In this document: in pieces, positions 1 through 6,855 of the stretch
How the letters are laid out: each line of letters starts with the position of its first letter
Position numbering within the stretch: the first letter of the stretch is position 1
Assembly: GCA_014729595.1 (NCBI GenBank)
Contig: WJJU01000318.1
Coordinates: forward strand, 1-15,135
Reading direction: 5' to 3'
DNA from: Chitinivibrionales bacterium
GTDB lineage: Bacteria; Fibrobacterota; Chitinivibrionia; Chitinivibrionales; WJMI01
Length of the DNA stretch: 15,135 nucleotides
The notes under the pieces: generated by a model
Seen by the model: the letters and a program-made list of their open reading frames with translations, nothing else
Told to the model about the DNA's origin: nothing
Database searches by the model: none
Translations under genes and position numbers: made by a program

Positions 1-366
1 CGTGAACTGCGTCTCCGCATTCGCTGGGTTGCGCTACTTTATGGTCGGACGAAAGCACAAATGGCCGTCACCGGAGGCGTTCATACCCCCGAAGATATGG
101 TGAAAGCCGTTGCGGCCGGTGCAACTATAGCCATGACAACCTCATCATTGTTAATCAACGGCGTTGATCATATCGGCACGCTCTTAGGGGGTTTCCAGGG
201 ATGGATGAACCGAAATGGGTATGATTCAGTTCAAAGCCTACGCGGTGTGCTAAGCCATGAATCAGTTGCGGAGCCGGGGGCTTTCGTACGAGCCAATTAC
301 ATGCACGTGCTTTCTTCGTACGTCCCGCGGGGGCAAGAGGGGTTAAGCGTGCGGAGTCATCGGTAA
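1..366 (+). CDS. Dihydroorotate dehydrogenase family protein (PyrD/PreA-like), C-terminal fragment. The 5' end lies upstream of the window.
   Basis: Frame 1 is open from nt 1 with no stop before the TAA at 364-366; the ORF track only reports it from the internal ATG at 61. The translation 'VTGGVHTPEDMVKAVAAGATIAMTTSSLL...GTLLGGFQGWMNRNGYDSVQSLRG' matches the C-terminal FMN-binding barrel end of class-1 DHOD-like enzymes (GG[IV]xxxxD, AGA, W[ML]xxxG). Confidence 0.55.
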   Translation, partial: RELRLRIRWVALLYGRTKAQMAVTGGVHTPEDMVKAVAAGATIAMTTSSLLINGVDHIGTLLGGFQGWMNRNGYDSVQSLRGVLSHESVAEPGAFVRANYMHVLSSYVPRGQEGLSVRSHR

Positions 367-971
367 AAGCCGTCCTATAAATGCTGATCCCGCCGGCGGG
401 GTAGCGGAGCGCGACGGGGCCGGATGTGAGGGGCGGGTGCACGAGAGACATGATGGTTTGATCCCGAAGGGATCATAGTAGTTAAGCTCCGGAACGGCTG
501 TGACACTGAGGCGCAACCGACTATATACACATCGTTCGAGCAGCAACTCGGGCCACATGGATGGGTGGAGATGCCGCTTGCGGGACGAAGGCTGCCCGCG
601 CCCCCCCAATGAGGGCGGGCGCGAACAGGATGGTCTCATCCCGCCCTACGGCCGATGTGAGTATGCCTAAGACGGCTTCGGGTAACGATGGTTAATGCGG
701 AGAGCCGGATAATTGTAATGCTTGTTTTTCTTATTAAATGGCCCAACCCGGCTCACCGCCGAAGCAATAGATGAAGCGAACGTCGCCCGTAGTGACCGAC
801 CAATGTCAATGCGTTCGGCCAAGCCTCTTCTCACTTCCGAGCAGCCTGTTTTCGAAAATGACAATGGTGTGCGTCATTTTGCCATTTCGTAATCGGCTCC
901 GGCCGTGGCACATCCTTTGCGTGATCCACCACTCTTTCGTATCGCCCGACATATTGATTCAGGAGGTATCC

Positions 972-1160
972 GTGAAAGCTGTCGTAGATCAAGACACCTG
1001 TATTGGCTGTGGTTTGTGTCCCGACGTATGTCCGGAAGTGTTTGCTATGGACGACAACGAGAAGGCATACACCAAGATTGAGGAAGTGCCGACTAATGTG
1101 GAGAGCAAGTGCCGCGAGGCCGCCCAAAGCTGTCCCGTCGAGGCGATAACCATCGAATAA
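972..1160 (+). CDS. Small single-cluster [4Fe-4S]/[3Fe-4S] ferredoxin, 62 aa.
   Basis: GTG start at 972-974 lies 5 nt after a perfect AGGAGG (961-966). The track ORF 771..1160 is this gene with a spurious 5' extension. The product 'MKAVVDQDTCIGCGLCPDVCPEVFAMDDNEKAYTKIEEVPTNVESKCREAAQSCPVEAITIE' has the CxxCxxC...CP cluster motif and strongly resembles the 60-aa ferredoxins of Thermotoga and Pyrococcus. Confidence 0.85.
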   Translation: MKAVVDQDTCIGCGLCPDVCPEVFAMDDNEKAYTKIEEVPTNVESKCREAAQSCPVEAITIE

Positions 1161-1334
1161 ACAGACGTGCAACCGGGTATTGAACCTCGCCGGTCCGCCG
1201 CCGCGGAATCGCACCGTGTTTTAATACCCTGAGCAAGGTTTATGACAACTCTTGCTTCCCGCCCCGATCACCGCAATGCGCAACTGCGTCACATCGGAAT
1301 AAGCGGATATCATAAACCAGCTCTGAGTATTGAT

Positions 1335-1355
1335 TGTTTGCATCTTCGGTAAACA
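1335..1355. promoter_or_regulatory. Imperfect inverted repeat tGTTTGC-N7-GTAAACa lying 50-70 bp upstream of the EncFtn start. It is a candidate operator overlapping a weak -35/-10 (TTGCAT ... GGTAAT).
   Basis: Seen directly in the sequence: the arms are 1335-1341 and 1349-1355 with one mismatch. The call is positional only. Confidence 0.25.
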
Positions 1356-1403
1356 TCCCGGTAATGCGGTTACGAACCGGTTTAATGAAAGGAAGGAGAC
1401 TAC

Positions 1404-1799
1404 ATGGCGGAGTTTGTTAATCCATTTGTGGGCATGGTCCCAGACCGTAAACTAAGCAACCGGGAATTGCTGCGAGGGTTACGGCAATCGCTGGCCGCCG
1501 AGCAAGAGGCGGCTCATCTCTACTTGGCTCTCGCGGACGCCACCGACAATCCCTTGGCTCGTCGCGTTCTCGAAGACGTGGCCGATGAAGAACGGGTGCA
1601 TGCGGGAGAATTCCTGCGCCTTATAGAGATTCTCGCTAAAGATGAACAAAGCCTGCTTGCCCAGGGGACGCGCGAAGTGGAAGAAATGCGGGAGGAACTT
1701 CGGGGAAAAGGAGCAGCGGCCGCGAAAGAGGAAGATATGAGCGAAGAAGAGCCGCGGCAAGACATCCCTTCAATAGGTAATTTGCGCGGTGAACGTTAA
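1404..1799 (+). CDS. Encapsulated ferritin-like protein (EncFtn / Flp cargo) with a C-terminal encapsulin targeting peptide.
   Basis: An RBS AAGGAAGGAGA precedes the ATG. The core 'ELLRGLRQSLAAEQEAAHLYLALADATDNPLARRVLEDVADEERVHAGEFLRLIEIL' follows the EncFtn pattern (E..A..Y ... EE..HA..L with ExxH metal ligands). An acidic linker and the tail '...DIPSIGNLRGER' resemble the GSL/IGxL-type cargo-loading peptide. The gene sits immediately upstream of the shell gene. Confidence 0.8.
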   Translation: MAEFVNPFVGMVPDRKLSNRELLRGLRQSLAAEQEAAHLYLALADATDNPLARRVLEDVADEERVHAGEFLRLIEILAKDEQSLLAQGTREVEEMREELRGKGAAAAKEEDMSEEEPRQDIPSIGNLRGER

Positions 1800-1848
1800 A
1801 CCGTCGCAGAGGAATACAAAGCAATTTGATTTGAGGAGGCTATGACCT

Positions 1849-2661
1849 ATGTCCGATAAATTGCTCCACAGATCCGATGCCCCTTTCAGCGAGAAGACAT
1901 GGCATCAGATTGATTTGGCGGTACGTGACGCCGCGATAAGCGAAGTGAGTGCACGAAGAATTCTTGAGACGAAAGGCCCCTACGGGATTGGCCTCAAGTC
2001 GCTTCCTCTCGCCGACCGGCCTCTGGAAAAGGAGTCCGACGACACGGTAGAGGTTGCGGTCGACGCCGCCGTTCCAATGCCGCTCATCTCAACTTCATTC
2101 AGCATAGCGGCGCGAGACATCGATAATTTTGAGCGTTACGGTCTACCCTTGGATACCGGCGCGGCCTCCGAAGCGGCCGTCGCATGTGCGCGCAAGGAAG
2201 AACAATTGCTCTATTACGGCGCTCCCGAAAGCGGTATCCCGGGTTTGTTGACCGGCGACGGCGTACAGGAGATAAGCCTTAAGAAATGGGACGACGTAGG
2301 GGAGGCGGCCGAAGACATTATTCGCATAATCGATAAGATGGACGGCGCGGGTTTTCACGGGCCTTTCGCCTTGGCGCTGGCGCCCGCCCGCTACAATGCA
2401 CTCTTCCGTCGCTACCCGCAAGGTCCAATGATCGAGATTTCACACATACGGGAGTTGGTTACCGGGGGAGTTATAAAAGCGCCCGCCATCCAAAAAGGTG
2501 GCGTGCTTATATGCACCGGCGAACGACTCGCCTCAATTATCCTTGGCCAGGACCTTCTTACCGCCTTTGAAGGACCGGAGGGAAGAAACTACACATTCGT
2601 GTTGTCCGAAAGCCTTGGACTTCGTCTTTCGACTCCCGCCGCCGTTTGCCGATTGAAATAA
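1849..2661 (+). CDS. Family-1 encapsulin nanocompartment shell protein (HK97 fold, linocin M18-like), 270 aa.
   Basis: 'MSDKLLHRSDAPFSEKTWHQIDLAVRDAA...TKGPYG...GAPESGIPGLL...HGPFALALAPARYNAL...LILGQDL...' aligns block-for-block with the Thermotoga maritima encapsulin (LKRSFAPLTEKQWQEID...EGPYGW...GCEKSGVKGLL...EGPYTLVINTDRW...LILGQDL). A GAGGAGG RBS is present. Confidence 0.9.
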   Translation: MSDKLLHRSDAPFSEKTWHQIDLAVRDAAISEVSARRILETKGPYGIGLKSLPLADRPLEKESDDTVEVAVDAAVPMPLISTSFSIAARDIDNFERYGLPLDTGAASEAAVACARKEEQLLYYGAPESGIPGLLTGDGVQEISLKKWDDVGEAAEDIIRIIDKMDGAGFHGPFALALAPARYNALFRRYPQGPMIEISHIRELVTGGVIKAPAIQKGGVLICTGERLASIILGQDLLTAFEGPEGRNYTFVLSESLGLRLSTPAAVCRLK

Positions 2662-2757
2662 TCGAAAATCCAATGACAAGACTAAATGAAACAACAATAA
2701 TCTTTATACTGCGGTGAGCAGTAAGTAGTCAATTAACTTTTTCGAAGGAGACGTCCC

Positions 2758-3153
2758 ATGCCGGCACTTGCCGATCTATACCAGACCGCCGACTGGAAAA
2801 CCGAAAAACATGTTCCCTCCATTGAGCTTCCCGATGTTGTACGGCGAGGTGAATTTTTTCCGATCACCGTAACGATAGGCAAAGAAGTAGCGCATCCCAA
2901 TAAGACTGAACATCATATCAGTTGGATCGGGGTCTACTTTCAGCCCCAGGGAAGCAAGTTTCCCTACGAAATCGGTAAAATGCATTTCACCGCCCACGGC
3001 GCGTCCACCGACGGCCCGGATACCAGCGGCGTCTACACGCATCATCAGGCGACCTTGAACTTTAAGACCGACAAACCAGGCACCGTCTTCGCCGGCAGCT
3101 ACTGCAATATCCACGGTCTCTGGGAAAACTCGCAAGAACTCAAAGTAGAGTAG
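2758..3153 (+). CDS. sor: Superoxide reductase, 1Fe class (neelaredoxin / desulfoferrodoxin C-domain family), 131 aa.
   Basis: A GAAGGAGA RBS lies 6 nt upstream. 'DWKTEKHVPSIE...GKEVAHPNKTEHHISWIGVYF...FTAHGASTDGPDTSGVYT...SYCNIHGLWEN' is near-identical in its motifs to the Pyrococcus furiosus SOR (DWKGEKHVPVIE...HPNTTEHHI...FTAHGESVNGPNTSDVYT...SYCNIHGLWEN), with the His4Cys iron ligands all present. Confidence 0.9.
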   Translation: MPALADLYQTADWKTEKHVPSIELPDVVRRGEFFPITVTIGKEVAHPNKTEHHISWIGVYFQPQGSKFPYEIGKMHFTAHGASTDGPDTSGVYTHHQATLNFKTDKPGTVFAGSYCNIHGLWENSQELKVE

Positions 3154-3184
3154 TACTTAAGCGAAGTAGAGTAGTACTTAAACG
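3143..3184. repeat. Tandem direct duplication, 2 x 21 bp (aagtagagtagtacttaaGCG / aagtagagtagtacttaaACG), spanning the SOR stop codon.
   Basis: Seen directly: the 18-nt core is identical in both copies at 3143-3160 and 3164-3181 and contains the palindrome AGTACT. The first copy supplies the codons ...K V E stop. Confidence 0.85.
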
Positions 3185-3221
3185 CCCGTCGGATAAAACG
3201 CGGCGCTTTTTGCTCAAGGTC

Positions 3222-3280
3222 GGGGGAATCCTTCAATAGGAAGGATTCCCCCGATTTTTTGTGCGCCCGGCAGGGCGCAC
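3222..3280 (+). terminator. Rho-independent terminator of the ferredoxin/encapsulin/SOR operon, followed by a second GC hairpin.
   Basis: A 13-bp perfect stem GGGGGAATCCTTC (3222-3234) and GAAGGATTCCCCC (3240-3252) with loop AATAG is followed by GATTTTTTG (T-run 3255-3260). A second hairpin GTGCGCCC-GGCA-GGGCGCAC lies at 3261-3280. Confidence 0.85.
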
Positions 3281-3519
3281 CTTCTTGGTGGTGCGGAGGT
3301 GATTGCCTCTTAGTCCACTATACGCCCGACAGAGGGAAGTGTTAGCCGGACGGCAAGGGTGCCGCGGCTTATCCGACGCTACCTGCAGGCGAATATCATG
3401 ATAGGCGGGTTGGAAAAGGCCCGCACGGAAGGCTCGCGGCGGTCCATCGAAGCATAGATCAGGGTTCCGATCGTGGTTCCGGCTCTGGATACTGAAATTC
3501 GAAATCCATGAATTTTATT

Positions 3520-3927
3520 TCAGCCGATTCCGACACTTTTAAGCTGAACAAGGACCAATCCAATCCCTATAATACATATTCCGGTCCACTGAATACCGCT
3601 AAGCGGTTGGCGGAAGACGATGCTTGAGGCAAATTGCAGGACAAAAAACGCTCCACCAATACAAAAAGCGTATATGAGATTAGGATTGGCATTTCTCAGC
3701 GCAAGCGTAAGACAGACCGGACTCGCAAAACCGATACTGGTTCCTAAAAGAAACATTCCATAAAGCTGAGCCCCGGTCCGCTGGGAGGCGAAGCGCAAAC
3801 AAAGGTATGCGCCGGTTTGAGAAATTACAAACCCGATAATACAAGCGAGGGTACGCAAAGAAAACATAGGCACTTTGTGAAATTGAATAGCGGTTGGAAA
3901 TACCGGCGGTGGGCCGTGGGCATACAC
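3520..3927 (-). CDS. Small polytopic membrane protein with about 4 TM helices (SMR/DMT-like). Function unknown and start codon uncertain; alternative ATG at 3867.
   Basis: The 135-aa ORF is almost entirely hydrophobic in four blocks (LACIIGFVISQTGAYLCL, LYGMFLLGTSIGFASPVCLTLAL, LIYAFCIGGAFFVLQFASSIVF, WTGICIIGIGLVLVQL). No convincing SD precedes either ATG, and the canonical EmrE Glu is not conserved, so the family assignment is weak. Confidence 0.4.
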   Translation of the reverse strand: MYAHGPPPVFPTAIQFHKVPMFSLRTLACIIGFVISQTGAYLCLRFASQRTGAQLYGMFLLGTSIGFASPVCLTLALRNANPNLIYAFCIGGAFFVLQFASSIVFRQPLSGIQWTGICIIGIGLVLVQLKSVGIG

Positions 3928-4352
3928 GGGACCGATCGAGCGGTTGGGCGGTAAGCAATAATCACCTGATTGGCGCCACTTGGTCCCTCCGCCTCAATAG
4001 GCGGTTGGAACACACGAAGCGTGAACCAAACCAACCCCATGGCGATACGCTCATACCTAAACCAGTCCGCCGGATAAGATAAAATAAAAACCAAGCATAA
4101 ACAGTTCCTTAAAAAATAGCTATCGCAGCCGTCGCTCGCCTAGTGTACCCCATCGATGCAAAAGTTCCTCGATATTCAAGCGAAAAGCGGGAAAGAGTCG
4201 CCAATGATGCAACGGGGCACCGGCCTTTCTTTCTTCGCGCAACGGCCTATTGACGAAGCCGTGCGCCGGGAGCGGTACACAATACTATAGGCCTCTCGCC
4301 GTGCAGGGGGGCTCACATAAAAATAAAAACGAAATCGAATCCCACCAAGCAT

Positions 4353-4907
4353 TCAAAAAGGAATGTCGTCATCGTCGAGGTCTTCAAACTCATCAATCAA
4401 CGGGCCTAAGTCCCACTCCTCGTCTTCGGCCCCGTCGGGGATCTCACCGTGAACGGCCATCGATATAAAAGCCTCGGAGGCTTCGGTTAGCTGTTGCTCC
4501 AACATGCCCCGCAGCATATTCCAGAAGGGAATAAATATCTCGTCCGCGGCATGCGGCACGATGATTAGGCTGAAACTGTACTTGCCTGAGCGCTTTTTTC
4601 TGCTGTAGTCGAGCCCCAGCCGTTCCGCGAGCGCCTCAAAAGCGGAGGCCGAATACGGATCGAACACATCGATGGTAACCGGTTCCTTCTTGCGTCCCCG
4701 TGACGCCTTCTTCAGCCCCCGCATGACCCCCTCGAGAAGTTCCTGGTGCAATTGGGCATACTGTTCAGCCATCGCACCAATACCTATCTCATCTCTCAAC
4801 GGCATTGCCTCAGGTTCTTTTCGGGTGCCGCCTTTGCCGCCGGTGCCTTTCACCAGTTTGAGTTGAGGACGACCTCGGCCGGACGAGCTTTTTCGCTTAC
4901 GACCCAT
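4353..4907 (-). CDS. Hypothetical protein, 184 aa, with an N-terminal basic AT-hook-like region (SGRGRPQ) and a C-terminus identical to the SSB acidic tip (…FEDLDDDDIPF).
   Basis: The RBS is GGGAG-N5-ATG on the minus strand (4908-4920). The N-terminus reads 'MGRKRKSSSGRGRPQLKLVKGTGGKGGTRK' (AT-hook core RGRP); the middle is a helical, acidic region; and the last residues are DDDDIPF, confirmed by reverse-complementing 4353-4400. The protein shows no OB-fold sequence, so it is not an SSB itself. Confidence 0.55.
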   Translation of the reverse strand: MGRKRKSSSGRGRPQLKLVKGTGGKGGTRKEPEAMPLRDEIGIGAMAEQYAQLHQELLEGVMRGLKKASRGRKKEPVTIDVFDPYSASAFEALAERLGLDYSRKKRSGKYSFSLIIVPHAADEIFIPFWNMLRGMLEQQLTEASEAFISMAVHGEIPDGAEDEEWDLGPLIDEFEDLDDDDIPF

Positions 4908-5100
4908 ACGCGCTCCCTTCTTCCATTGATTACAGATCTATCGGGCGCCCTGCCTCGAATATAGCCCATTCCATTCGTTTCGAACCACTCTTTGAGGTCC
5001 CGGTAGTTGCGTTATGGGCTTTACGTTGGTAATCCACTTGAAAAAAGAACATTCAATAAGCCAAGTGAGTAAAAAACCACTACACAAATCCGTAAGATAT

Positions 5101-5127
5101 TGTATAATTGTTTATAGCAAACATAAT
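5101..5127 (+). promoter_or_regulatory. AT-rich promoter-like region with TG-TATAAT (5101-5108) and a second CATAAT (5122-5127) upstream of the 64-aa ORF. It may also serve the divergent 184-aa gene.
   Basis: The only strongly AT-rich block (5040-5140) in the divergent intergenic region 4908-5175 contains 'tTGTATAATtg', a consensus -10 with an upstream TG. No good -35 is present. Confidence 0.3.
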
Positions 5128-5175
5128 TTTGAACTGCGCACATCTGTCGAGTCAATCCCCGACGGAGGAATCGCG

Positions 5176-5370
5176 ATGACTAAGGATAACGAAGGCCGGA
5201 AGAAAGAAGCGAAGCATGCGACCATTGCTCGGAGCATTCGCGATCGTACTATTGCATTTTTTGACGGGAGACCTGCACGGGAAGAGCCGATCGGCAACGA
5301 GGAAATCAATGATCTGTTGATTGCTCTAAATACATGCACTTCGCTCGAAGAATTTCTATGCTCCGTTTGA
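5176..5370 (+). CDS. Small hypothetical protein, 64 aa.
   Basis: An ATG at 5176 lies 7 nt after GGAGG (5164-5168), and the track ORF 5014..5370 contains it. The product 'MTKDNEGRKKEAKHATIARSIRDRTIAFFDGRPAREEPIGNEEINDLLIALNTCTSLEEFLCSV' shows no recognisable family. It is called on RBS plus promoter context only. Confidence 0.35.
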   Translation: MTKDNEGRKKEAKHATIARSIRDRTIAFFDGRPAREEPIGNEEINDLLIALNTCTSLEEFLCSV

Positions 5371-5450
5371 GCTATCGGGCACAAAGCCGAACGAAATGAT
5401 GAATGGATCGTTCGGAAAGAAGCGGATGTAGCCGAGGGGCCGAACGGCTC

Positions 5451-6437
5451 TCATCCGCCACCCTTGTCTGATTCTTTGCGTCCGCCCTCCGCAACCAAAG
5501 CCGTTTCGTGCAAAAAATCACGAACGGAGGATGCGACCTCCTGATGATGCCCGAGCAAGAGGTGTCCGCCTTCGTCGAAGAATATCGTTCTGGCGTGAGG
5601 GGCGTATTCCGAGAGATATTGCAGCATGGCAAAGGGCAAAATATTGTCGTCGCGAGCCTGAAAAGCCAGAATGGGCGCTCTGATACGATCGAGGGGGAAG
5701 CCGATTGACTGCCGTATCGTGCTCATCTCCATGTCTGCAACCAACCCCTCATGCCGCGTAGCGATCGGCAGAAACGCATTGAGGAAGTCATCGAGCCATG
5801 TTTGTTCATGTGCGGAAAGACGCATCCTCACATGCGGCGGAGCACCAACAATAGTTTTCACTCTTTTGCGTATCAGTTTTCCCAGCGCCCAAAAAACCAT
5901 GTCCCATCGAAAACCATATCTGACGAGGGCCTCTTGAAAAAGAGATCTTCGGGGGGCGCTACGCGTAAGGCCCGAGAACAAAACCACCGCACGGCACCGC
6001 GCGGGATGATTTGCGGCAAATGTTAACGCCGAAGGTGCGCCCGCCGATACCCCTACAACACCGGCGGCGGGTACGTGGAGCGCATCGAGCAACGCCGCAT
6101 GCGCATCGGCTTGCGCTTCCGGAGAGGCGTCTTTGCGCATGGGGGTACGAAGGTAGCCGAAGCGGGAGGGTGCAATCCACCTGAATTCTCCACCAATCAG
6201 TCGCGCCACCAGCATACCTTGATCATGCCCCCCGCCGGCTCCATGCACAACCAATATCGGCGGCCCCTCGCCGGTCTCCGCATACTCTATCGGGCCGGCG
6301 GTGGTCTCAATCAGTTTGGCGGTGCCGAGTACACGCCGCCGCGCCTTCATGAGATCAAGGCGGTACCGGCGAAAAAAATTCGCCGCCATAAAGGCCGCCG
6401 CCCCTCCCAACATTGCGGAGATATACCGCCGTTTCAT
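5451..6437 (-). CDS. Alpha/beta-fold hydrolase, a putative lipase/esterase with an N-terminal membrane anchor.
   Basis: The start is the ATG at 6437 (RBS GGGAG-N6), whereas the track begins at an upstream GTG at 6455. The protein has the HGAGGG oxyanion-type motif and the nucleophile elbow GVSAG (GxSxG), with catalytic Asp/His candidates (DDNILPF ... GGHLL). A hydrophobic N-terminus (ISAMLGGAAAFMAANFF) is present. Confidence 0.8.
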   Translation of the reverse strand: MKRRYISAMLGGAAAFMAANFFRRYRLDLMKARRRVLGTAKLIETTAGPIEYAETGEGPPILVVHGAGGGHDQGMLVARLIGGEFRWIAPSRFGYLRTPMRKDASPEAQADAHAALLDALHVPAAGVVGVSAGAPSALTFAANHPARCRAVVLFSGLTRSAPRRSLFQEALVRYGFRWDMVFWALGKLIRKRVKTIVGAPPHVRMRLSAHEQTWLDDFLNAFLPIATRHEGLVADMEMSTIRQSIGFPLDRIRAPILAFQARDDNILPFAMLQYLSEYAPHARTIFFDEGGHLLLGHHQEVASSVRDFLHETALVAEGGRKESDKGGG

Positions 6438-6500
6438 GCCTATCTCCCTTTGCACCGTTTTAGAAATGAACCCATCTTGTCCCCTTTTTGGAAATCTTCG

Positions 6501-6695
6501 CTATGCGGAATGTACCGGATGCAGGGCTTCGAGACGCAATGCGATTTTCTTGAGGATATCCTTGCGTTCCCGCAATCTATCTTTGAAATCCGGACTATCG
6601 GTCTGAGCAATCTCCGCACGTAAATCGGAAATCGCCGAGTGCAGCAGCTCGTCCAATACTTCTTCTTCCTCGTGCGACAATTCCAGAGAGTCCAT
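6501..6695 (-). CDS. Small acidic all-helical protein, 64 aa, of unknown function. It lies between the acyltransferase fusion and the hydrolase.
   Basis: An ATG at 6695 has a perfect GGGAGG-N5 RBS (6701-6706). The product is 'MDSLELSHEEEEVLDELLHSAISDLRAEIAQTDSPDFKDRLRERKDILKKIALRLEALHPVHSA'. Confidence 0.45.
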   Translation of the reverse strand: MDSLELSHEEEEVLDELLHSAISDLRAEIAQTDSPDFKDRLRERKDILKKIALRLEALHPVHSA

Positions 6696-6855
6696 AGCAA
6701 CCTCCCGTTCAAAACCAAGAGCCGTGAACAACCCGTATTACGTTTGCATGCGCTCTCGTGAAGCCCAGTCTCCCCCGATTCGGGGTGATAACTTCGATTC
6801 TGTTCCAACTCCATAAACGAGCAAGTGTCGTGCCTTGTGTTGTTCAACGTTTCAC

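Follow-up and report, generated by a model that had tools for sequence, protein, structure and literature searches.

A predicted sigma-54-dependent operon architecture linking ferredoxin, EncFtn, an encapsulin shell and superoxide reductase in a Chitinivibrionales bacterium

The stretch of DNA considered here, called the window throughout, comprises 15,135 nucleotides from a Chitinivibrionales bacterium of the phylum Fibrobacterota (contig WJJU01000318.1 of assembly GCA_014729595.1, positions 1 to 15,135 of the forward strand); it is the whole of this contig, which belongs to a metagenome-assembled genome. Near its 5' end, four open reading frames (ORFs) on the + strand encode, in this order, a ferredoxin, an EncFtn cargo protein, an encapsulin shell protein and a superoxide reductase (SOR); they are co-directional and separated by gaps of 243, 49 and 96 bp. 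Taken as a whole, the row is on balance probably a sigma-54-dependent operon for oxidative-stress defense and iron sequestration in an anaerobe. Every part belongs to a known family and no new kind of machine is present; the novelty lies in the recurrent architecture of the operon and in its sigma-54 type promoter. The row had been proposed in an earlier, sequence-only reading of the window, whose coordinates, co-directionality, gaps and Shine-Dalgarno sequence for each gene were all reproduced exactly, and whose four gene identities were upheld by curated family cut-offs. The genes are the following:

972-1160, + strand: ferredoxin, GTG start, 62 aa
1404-1799, + strand: EncFtn cargo, 131 aa
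1849-2661, + strand: encapsulin shell, 270 aa
2758-3153, + strand: SOR, 131 aa

Direct reading of the sequence places the Shine-Dalgarno sequences 5 nt ahead of the ferredoxin GTG (AGGAGG), 4 nt ahead of the EncFtn ATG (AAGGAGA), 9 nt ahead of the encapsulin ATG (GAGGAGG) and 6 nt ahead of the SOR ATG (AAGGAGA).

The shell protein is assigned by profile scores to the family 1 encapsulins (NCBIfam encap_f1, 235.2 bits against a cut-off of 100; Pfam Linocin_M18, 234.1 bits against 24.3); an exact-sequence look-up of it gave no record, and the NCBI entry to which it is 100% identical bears just the name 'DUF2184 domain-containing protein'. It matches solved shells over its full length, the best being 9i8e, 9fy6, 6nj8 and 4pt2 (E about 1e-40 to 1e-37); 4pt2 is Myxococcus xanthus EncA (E = 6e-37), and the Thermotoga maritima shell 3dkt is a much weaker match (E = 1e-21). 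Since the four nearest structures were deposited as 4-chain or 3-chain asymmetric units, the window shell may exceed 60 subunits around its EncFtn cargo. In a manual sequence alignment, the flavin-stacking W90 of T. maritima is matched by an arginine, R89, which is invariant in the shell alignment; because of this replacement, a T. maritima-style flavin route seems to be unavailable in the window shell.

The cargo passes the NCBIfam EncB_fam model (98.5 bits against a cut-off of 90) and falls below the cut-off of both TIGR04535 (70.8 bits, cut-off 125) and Pfam EncFtn-like (17.5 bits, cut-off 27), and it is thus classified by these profiles in the EncB/EncC-like branch and not in the classical Rhodospirillum rubrum branch. 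Its nearest solved structures are M. xanthus EncC 7s8t (E = 1.9e-13) and Pyrococcus furiosus EncFtn 5n5e. The predicted ferroxidase-center residues E33, Y40, E63 and H66 align with their counterparts in 5n5e and 7s8t, the residues of the R. rubrum center being E32/Y39/E62/H65; in the window cargo an acidic linker follows them. For comparison, the contexts of the closest shells were joined to 80 genome loci whose shells are 43-60% identical, giving 85 loci in total; these were searched with the four window proteins, the nearby ORFs were clustered, the cluster representatives were annotated, and a shell tree was built by neighbor-joining. In all 85 loci EncFtn precedes the shell, and all 85 of these EncFtn homologues, encoded just 5' of the related shells, end in the motif [IP][TS][IV]G[NDS][LM][KR], ahead of which runs a linker that is acidic or of low complexity. 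The window form of the motif is PSIGNLR, and it lies in the following peptide:

1761-1796, + strand: C-terminal targeting peptide DIPSIGNLRGER, motif conserved in 85/85 homologues

The targeting peptide claimed for EncFtn in the sequence-only reading is therefore genuine. Among the other nearby ORFs of the 85 loci the motif is absent, apart from one chance match in an antisense ORF. Since the motif is carried by EncFtn and by neither SOR nor ferredoxin, EncFtn is the predicted cargo of the shell, and SOR and ferredoxin are not canonical cargo.

The fourth gene product carries the SOR catalytic domain (Desulfoferrodox, 110.7 bits; TIGR00332, 108.7 bits against a cut-off of 61.9). It fails the 2Fe model TIGR00320 (38 against 146.9) and has no N-terminal desulforedoxin domain, so that it is assigned, on its domain content, to the 1Fe or neelaredoxin class. 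The nearest solved structures are 4bff (E = 1.3e-45), T. maritima 2amu and P. furiosus 1do6; alignment to 4bff gives E16, K17, H18, H46, H52, C116 and H119 as active-site residues, which include the four His and the Cys expected to bind the iron, with the Glu-Lys pair sitting before the first His and with H53 as the neighboring His of the conserved HH pair. The earlier statement that SOR has no targeting peptide also stands, as no targeting-peptide-like motif is found at either end of the window protein or of any of the 26 SORs encoded beside related shells; the SOR termini are no longer than those of the free-standing P. furiosus or Archaeoglobus fulgidus enzymes.

The ferredoxin scores 63.8 bits with Fer4_15 (cut-off 22.4) and 62 bits with Fer4_13, and the nearest solved structures are the P. 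furiosus ferredoxin 2z8q (E = 1.8e-15) and the T. maritima ferredoxin 1rof. Its CxxCxxC...CP ligand pattern indicates a Pyrococcus/Thermotoga-type protein with a single predicted [4Fe-4S] cluster, for which C10, C13, C16 and C54 are the putative ligands by alignment to 2z8q; an extra Cys pair, C20/C47, is also present. Curated profile searches returned no Bfd or 2Fe-2S family match, the window protein has no targeting peptide, and targeting-like motifs are absent at both ends of all 12 related ferredoxins. A Bfd-like, IMEF-associated ferredoxin was thus ruled out, as there is neither a Bfd/2Fe-2S match nor an N-terminal targeting motif of the TVGSL type.

The control elements of the row are the following:

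855-880, no strand assigned: inverted repeat AAAATGAC-N10-GTCATTTT, perfect over 8 nt, just 5' of the -24 element
907-920, + strand: sigma-54 type -24/-12 element gTGGCACatcctTTGCg, in a TGGCAC-N5-TTGC arrangement (GG at -24, GC at -12)
1161-1403, + strand: ferredoxin-EncFtn spacer, 243 nt, 5' half moderately structured, hairpins at about 1175-1257
3183-3262, + strand: tandem intrinsic terminators, a weaker hairpin with U5 (3183-3212) and a 19-bp stem with a 5-nt loop and U6 (3216-3262)

The sigma-54 element, first noticed by eye and then formally searched with the pattern GGCAY-N5-TTGC, lies 52 nt ahead of the ferredoxin GTG; the predicted transcription start falls near 931-932, leaving a 5' untranslated region of about 40 nt that includes the ferredoxin Shine-Dalgarno sequence. 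The motif recurs on the coding strand 5' of the first operon gene in 11 Fibrobacterota relatives: it precedes ferredoxin, as in the window, in L001/L002 and L008, and EncFtn in the ferredoxin-less L003, L004, L005, L006, L013, L059, L062 and L068. These 11 matches compare with about 0.36 expected at the local background rate in 16 upstream stretches of 300 bp from the Fibrobacterota loci, in which the motif is roughly ten times as frequent as a hand calculation from base composition predicts; in the whole window there are 3 matches against 0.34 expected. Neither in the window nor in the Fibrobacterota loci does the motif ever fall between ferredoxin and EncFtn; indeed, it is this position of the promoter that places ferredoxin inside the unit.

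The other two matches of the window are on the - strand, at 9688-9701, 160 nt 5' of a gene for an AMP-binding / PP-binding / acyltransferase fusion (890 aa, 6856-9528, - strand), and at 6821-6834, 366 nt 5' of an alpha/beta-hydrolase gene (5451-6455, - strand). The inverted repeat at 855-880 is, speculatively, a candidate regulator-binding site; no equivalent of it is shared by the relatives. L006 and L013 have in common a TTCTCG-N4-CGAGAA repeat 5' of their sigma-54 motifs (ATTCTCGAATGCGAGAAT in L006, TTCTCGATATCGAGAA in L013), which is no better than shuffles and is missing from the window and the other loci. Upstream of the promoter, from the stop of a DHO_dh-like gene, about 540 bp (367-906) hold no convincing gene and include G+C-rich inverted repeats at 592-647; the corresponding interval is only about 100 bp in L001, the closest relative.

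At the other end of the row, a folding energy of -47.5 kcal/mol (z = -6.0) was computed for the terminator region, which none of 200 shuffles equals in stability. The strong terminator that had been placed after the last gene is therefore genuine, with a weaker hairpin ahead of it; a simple consensus scan overlooked the one at 3216-3262 and gave just a small hairpin at 3261-3280. By eye, a hairpin and T run also follow SOR in L001, L006 and L013, and a hairpin without T run in L008. No intrinsic terminator is present in the three internal gaps. The ferredoxin-EncFtn spacer contains no G+C hairpin with U tract and no sigma-54 motif, a single weak 5-bp site at 1202-1218 being found there, and its folding is more stable than expected in the 5' part (z = -2.4 for 1161-1290; +1.0 for 1280-1403). 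No RNA family came up when the entire window was compared with Rfam (E <= 1), and a riboswitch as the explanation of the 243-bp gap was thus ruled out. In a consensus scan for sigma-70 promoters and terminators, the counts were not above those of shuffles. The conserved position of the promoter, a feature not noted in the sequence-only reading, the lack of an internal terminator and the strong terminator after SOR make it likely that the four genes form one transcription unit, as that reading had proposed; this is predicted from sequence features.

Comparison of gene neighborhoods indicates that the arrangement is not due to chance, since relatives repeat the same genes in the same order. SOR is the commonest extra neighbor of the related shell operons: it is found in 26 of the 85 loci and never on the opposite strand. 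Within one Fibrobacterota subclade, each member that could be evaluated (the window, L001/L002, L003, L004, L006, L008, L013) has it directly 3' of the shell, and it is directly 5' of EncFtn in Verrucomicrobiota (3/3) and in several Chloroflexota subclades. Planctomycetota have a different SOR class, 31-34% identical, encoded 30-33 bp upstream in L010 and L060 and downstream in L083. The varying orders and the varying SOR class beside similarly related shells argue for repeated recruitment of SOR rather than one inherited accident.

Ferredoxin is directly 5' of EncFtn in 11 of the 85 loci, namely in Fibrobacterota (the window, L001/L002, L008), in Planctomycetota (L023, L037, L047, L067, L083) and, more weakly, in Anaerolineae (L051, L076). 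In L008 the + strand unit begins with it, 21 bp from EncFtn by tblastn boundaries, and the upstream neighbors are on the opposite strand. A gene for pyruvate:ferredoxin oxidoreductase (PFOR) and a DHO_dh-like gene lie 5' of ferredoxin in L001, and the C-terminus of a DHO_dh-like protein is encoded at 1-366 of the window; both PFOR and DHO_dh are absent from all the other ferredoxin-bearing loci. Rubredoxin occurs in or near the cluster in six Anaerolineae loci (L030, L061, L065, L073, L076, L082), the L030 gene (2330-2488) being directly 3' of the shell gene; it is found in no Fibrobacterota encapsulin locus, where ferredoxin is present instead.

Among the other neighbors, DJ-1/PfpI and a ferritin-like or rubrerythrin-domain protein each recur in 12 loci, peroxiredoxin in 10, rubrerythrin in 9 and a Pyr_redox_2/AIF_C flavoprotein in 6. 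The earlier proposal of an iron-sequestration and superoxide-detoxification island fits these neighborhoods, with SOR, ferredoxin, DJ-1/PfpI, peroxiredoxin, rubrerythrin and rubredoxin among the recurrent genes. The flavoprotein, of 401 aa, comes after SOR in L003 and L004 (7491-8696 in L004), both of which are without ferredoxin; it may supply the SOR pathway as an NAD(P)H-linked reductase, and genes for VIT1-family iron transporters are found near it. In the Anaerolineales loci L064 (4601-4732) and L065 (6061-6195), the shell gene overlaps at its 3' end with a fragment that encodes just the C-terminal third of an SOR (residues 87-131, 47-48% identical); an intact SOR is also present upstream in both, and a second, downstream copy appears to have left this fragment behind. 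The cultured relative Chitinispirillum alkaliphilum (L165) has a DJ-1/PfpI-EncFtn-encapsulin row with no adjacent SOR or ferredoxin; it was rejected as a direct model because SOR is absent beside its encapsulin, and it is a potential strain for natural comparison.

The four genes are best read as a co-regulated operon rather than as the parts of an obligate complex. The sequences themselves show the gene identities, the targeting peptide, the motifs of promoter and terminator with their conservation, and the recurrent linkage of the genes; that the genes are co-transcribed, that oxidants induce them, that electrons take the route given below and that the functions act in synergy is inferred. 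Transcription would start about 12 nt 3' of the -12 element and yield a single transcript for ferredoxin, EncFtn, shell and SOR, stopping at 3183-3262. EncFtn would be packed through its C-terminal peptide into the self-assembling family 1 shell, where its di-iron center would oxidize Fe(II) and the ferric product would be laid down as mineral. SOR and ferredoxin, being untargeted, would remain in the cytosol, and SOR would turn superoxide into H2O2 with electrons from a small carrier, which in this lineage would most simply be the co-transcribed ferredoxin, a rubredoxin being encoded in Anaerolineae loci. Superoxide frees Fe(II) from Fe-S clusters and can reductively mobilize ferritin-type cores, and SOR makes H2O2; a Fe(II) sink expressed together with SOR would therefore be expected to prevent Fenton chemistry.

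A role of ferredoxin as electron donor to SOR is plausible. It is favored by the existence of SOR-ferredoxin pairs without encapsulin: in four metagenome loci among the matches listed (L092, L115, L153, L157), SOR adjoins a ferredoxin of the window's type (45-53% identical) at 35-108 bp on the same strand, with no encapsulin nearby. The occurrence of rubredoxin in Anaerolineae loci where Fibrobacterota carry ferredoxin points in the same direction. Conversely, donation to SOR is disfavored as the sole role of ferredoxin, because the ferredoxin-EncFtn-encapsulin order occurs without adjacent SOR in L023, L037, L047 and L067.

Several results weigh against the operon as read here, the first of them obtained in the reverse direction. 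A sample of 80 metagenomic loci was drawn, among the matches listed, with SORs 53-76% identical to that of the window, and 36 of them, with at least 1.5 kb on both sides, were evaluable; the EncFtn-encapsulin pair is present at just one of the 80, which is one of the 36. As to regulation, a tblastn search with an NtrC central-domain query found no enhancer-binding-protein gene within 6 kb in the 85 loci, and no palindromic activator site is shared 5' of the 11 sigma-54 elements. The 243-bp gap between ferredoxin and EncFtn is the longest among the relatives (about 20-180 bp in the others) and could hide an unrecognized promoter, and a sigma-70-like site with 10 of 12 matches is found before SOR at 2673-2701, although such sites occur at chance frequency (3 against a shuffle expectation of 2.0). 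The presence of ferredoxin and that of SOR beside shells are not significantly associated (Fisher p = 0.058, uncorrected for phylogeny). Finally, the canonical electron donor of SOR is rubredoxin, as in P. furiosus (10.1101/2025.03.19.643997).

The reverse sample led to the rejection of the idea that SORs of the window's type are generally linked to encapsulins. Rubredoxin directly adjoins SOR in six of its loci, among the matches listed (L093, L129, L145, L148, L149, L159). The linkage is thus asymmetric, as about 30% of the related shell operons have SOR and few SORs have a shell; since most SORs of the window's type are not beside encapsulins, the link is facultative, and this asymmetry favors co-regulation of stress genes over an obligate complex.

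Two other explanations deserve to be weighed, both of them rather unlikely. According to the first, ferredoxin serves the nanocompartment and not SOR, acting in the manner of Bfd by giving low-potential electrons to the shell or the mineral so that iron is released. Ferredoxin would then be the auxiliary electron-transfer factor that has been proposed to be missing from the known EncFtn encapsulins of anaerobes. The four Planctomycetota loci with ferredoxin, EncFtn and encapsulin and without adjacent SOR agree with this idea, as does the Bfd-like ferredoxin encoded in IMEF encapsulin operons, for which a part in iron release as reductant has been proposed (PMC8346489); in the case of T. maritima, the literature postulates an as yet unknown factor of the ferredoxin type (PMC8610991; PMC11202242). 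However, the window ferredoxin is of the [4Fe-4S] Pyrococcus type instead of the 2Fe-2S Bfd type and bears no targeting peptide at either end, the manual alignment puts R89 in the shell where T. maritima has its flavin-stacking W90, and ferredoxins of the window's type also adjoin SOR, among the matches listed, where no encapsulin is present.

The second, to which a similarly low probability is given, regards the row as two or three independent units that happen to be juxtaposed, ferredoxin being a partner of the upstream PFOR/DHO_dh-like genes and SOR having its own promoter. It can draw on the gene order of L001 and on the DHO_dh-like C-terminus at the beginning of the window, on the long and partly structured gap after ferredoxin and on the sigma-70-like site at 2673-2701. 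These points are countered by the sigma-54 element, which in both the window and L001 stands between the DHO_dh-like gene and ferredoxin, by the absence of PFOR and DHO_dh from every other ferredoxin-bearing locus, by the compact ferredoxin-EncFtn pair of L008 with its opposite-strand genes upstream, and by the lack of a terminator after either the ferredoxin or the shell gene.

That SOR is a physical component of the nanocompartment, as non-canonical cargo or docked on the shell surface, where it would remove superoxide at the compartment itself, is very improbable: SOR is repeatedly recruited beside the shell operon in varied orders and SOR classes, but none of the 26 adjacent SORs has a targeting-peptide-like motif, the SOR termini are not extended with respect to the free-standing P. 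furiosus and A. fulgidus enzymes, and an encapsulin is found at just 1/36 evaluable SOR loci among the matches listed.

The horizontal origin from Thermotoga or Pyrococcus raised in the sequence-only reading did not find support. The closest relatives of all four proteins are encoded in Fibrobacterota loci with the same synteny (shell 52-73% and SOR 62-83% identical), and no compositional sign of horizontal transfer is apparent when G+C content and its value at third codon positions (GC3) are compared with the rest of the contig, GC3 being 0.54-0.61 for the four genes and 0.53-0.62 for the remainder. Recent acquisition from a Thermotoga- or Pyrococcus-like thermophile is thus considered scarcely credible, because, although the best solved ferredoxin and SOR homologues come from P. 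furiosus, T. maritima and A. fulgidus, this resemblance arises since the characterized homologues happen to come from thermophiles, and the window SOR is nearer to the Fibrobacterota copies than to A. fulgidus Nlr (57%), in a cluster whose composition is indistinguishable from that of the contig.

The co-regulated operon remains the preferred reading, and a bolder version of it can be formulated, in which ferredoxin and SOR actually cooperate with the nanocompartment instead of being just its co-regulated neighbors: the [4Fe-4S] ferredoxin, itself untargeted, would supply SOR and, through the shell, the ferric core with low-potential electrons, in the latter case for iron release, and oxidant or iron stress would turn on the entire module by way of a sigma-54 activator. 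This version is considered quite unlikely; if it were true, the window ferredoxin type would be the long-sought external electron-transfer factor of the EncFtn encapsulins of anaerobes. For these encapsulins, commonly portrayed as iron stores of two genes, the oxidant in mineralization and the reductant in iron release are an open question in the field (PMC8610991, PMC11202242), and the present loci offer concrete candidate partners and a candidate regulator class. Among the loci examined, SOR has repeatedly been recruited by the shell operon in anaerobes belonging to four or more phyla, and in many cases so has a small [4Fe-4S] ferredoxin; in Fibrobacterota the recruited SOR and ferredoxin genes lie behind a sigma-54 type promoter, and iron sequestration is tied to superoxide removal at the level of one predicted transcript. 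Elsewhere in the window, and unrelated to the row, a gene at 9748-11736 on the - strand encodes a 662-aa protein with an N-terminal FHA domain and a C-terminal SLT lytic transglycosylase domain.

A genomic link between encapsulin and superoxide reductase is not reported in the literature searched, which leaves out most subscription journals. The main text of a large encapsulin survey does not mention superoxide and refers to ferredoxins solely for IMEF systems (PMC8346489); a 2016 encapsulin survey preprint is equally silent on superoxide, and nothing relevant was found under the older name 'linocin'.

Compared with known systems, the window unit resembles the two-gene EncFtn-encapsulin operons of R. 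rubrum and T. maritima (TM0786/TM0785), in which an EncFtn-type cargo with a C-terminal targeting peptide likewise precedes a family 1 shell and the role is iron mineralization; differently from them, it adds a ferredoxin and a 1Fe-SOR. Its shell also departs from that of T. maritima, being nearer to the group of 9i8e, 9fy6, 6nj8 and 4pt2 and having, by manual alignment, Arg at the W90 position. The likeness to the M. xanthus system, EncA with EncB, EncC and EncD, lies in the cargo, for which EncC is the nearest solved structure and the EncB_fam model is passed, and in the relationship of the shell to EncA. M. xanthus, however, is an aerobe with several cargos, one of which, EncD, is a flavin ferric reductase (PMC11126975), and its operon contains no SOR or ferredoxin. 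The IMEF system of Quasibacillus thermotolerans (Firmicutes), whose shell 6nj8 is among the best matches, is likewise an iron-mineralizing encapsulin operon with a ferredoxin, which is Bfd-like, of the 2Fe-2S type, bears a targeting motif at its N-terminus and is recovered together with the shells on purification (PMC8346489). There the cargo is IMEF and not EncFtn, whereas the predicted [4Fe-4S] ferredoxin of the window has no targeting motif.

Outside the encapsulins, the SOR-rubredoxin-rubrerythrin type of oxidative-stress cluster known from anaerobes, such as PF1281-1283 of P. furiosus, also joins a 1Fe-SOR to a small carrier and a ferritin-like di-iron protein, for O2 defense without O2 evolution. 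In the window the carrier is a ferredoxin, the di-iron protein is a predicted encapsulated ferroxidase instead of a soluble peroxidase, and the promoter is of the sigma-54 type.

A locus with similar components is that of the encapsulin A0A1G0XXJ5 from Lentisphaerae bacterium GWF2_45_14, tabulated in the supplement of the large survey and not discussed in its main text (PMC8346489). Its neighbors are a neelaredoxin (PF01880), a ferredoxin (PF13370) and a rubrerythrin-domain cargo, and two genes 3' of the encapsulin a PF00072-PF00158-PF02954 protein is encoded (PMC8346489 supplement), which is read here as a sigma-54 activator and gives an independent hint of the predicted sigma-54 control. The locus differs from the window in that SOR lies upstream and not downstream, and in that an Fe/Mn SOD comes after the shell. 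This Lentisphaerae row would add a fifth phylum to those in which the shell operon has recruited SOR.

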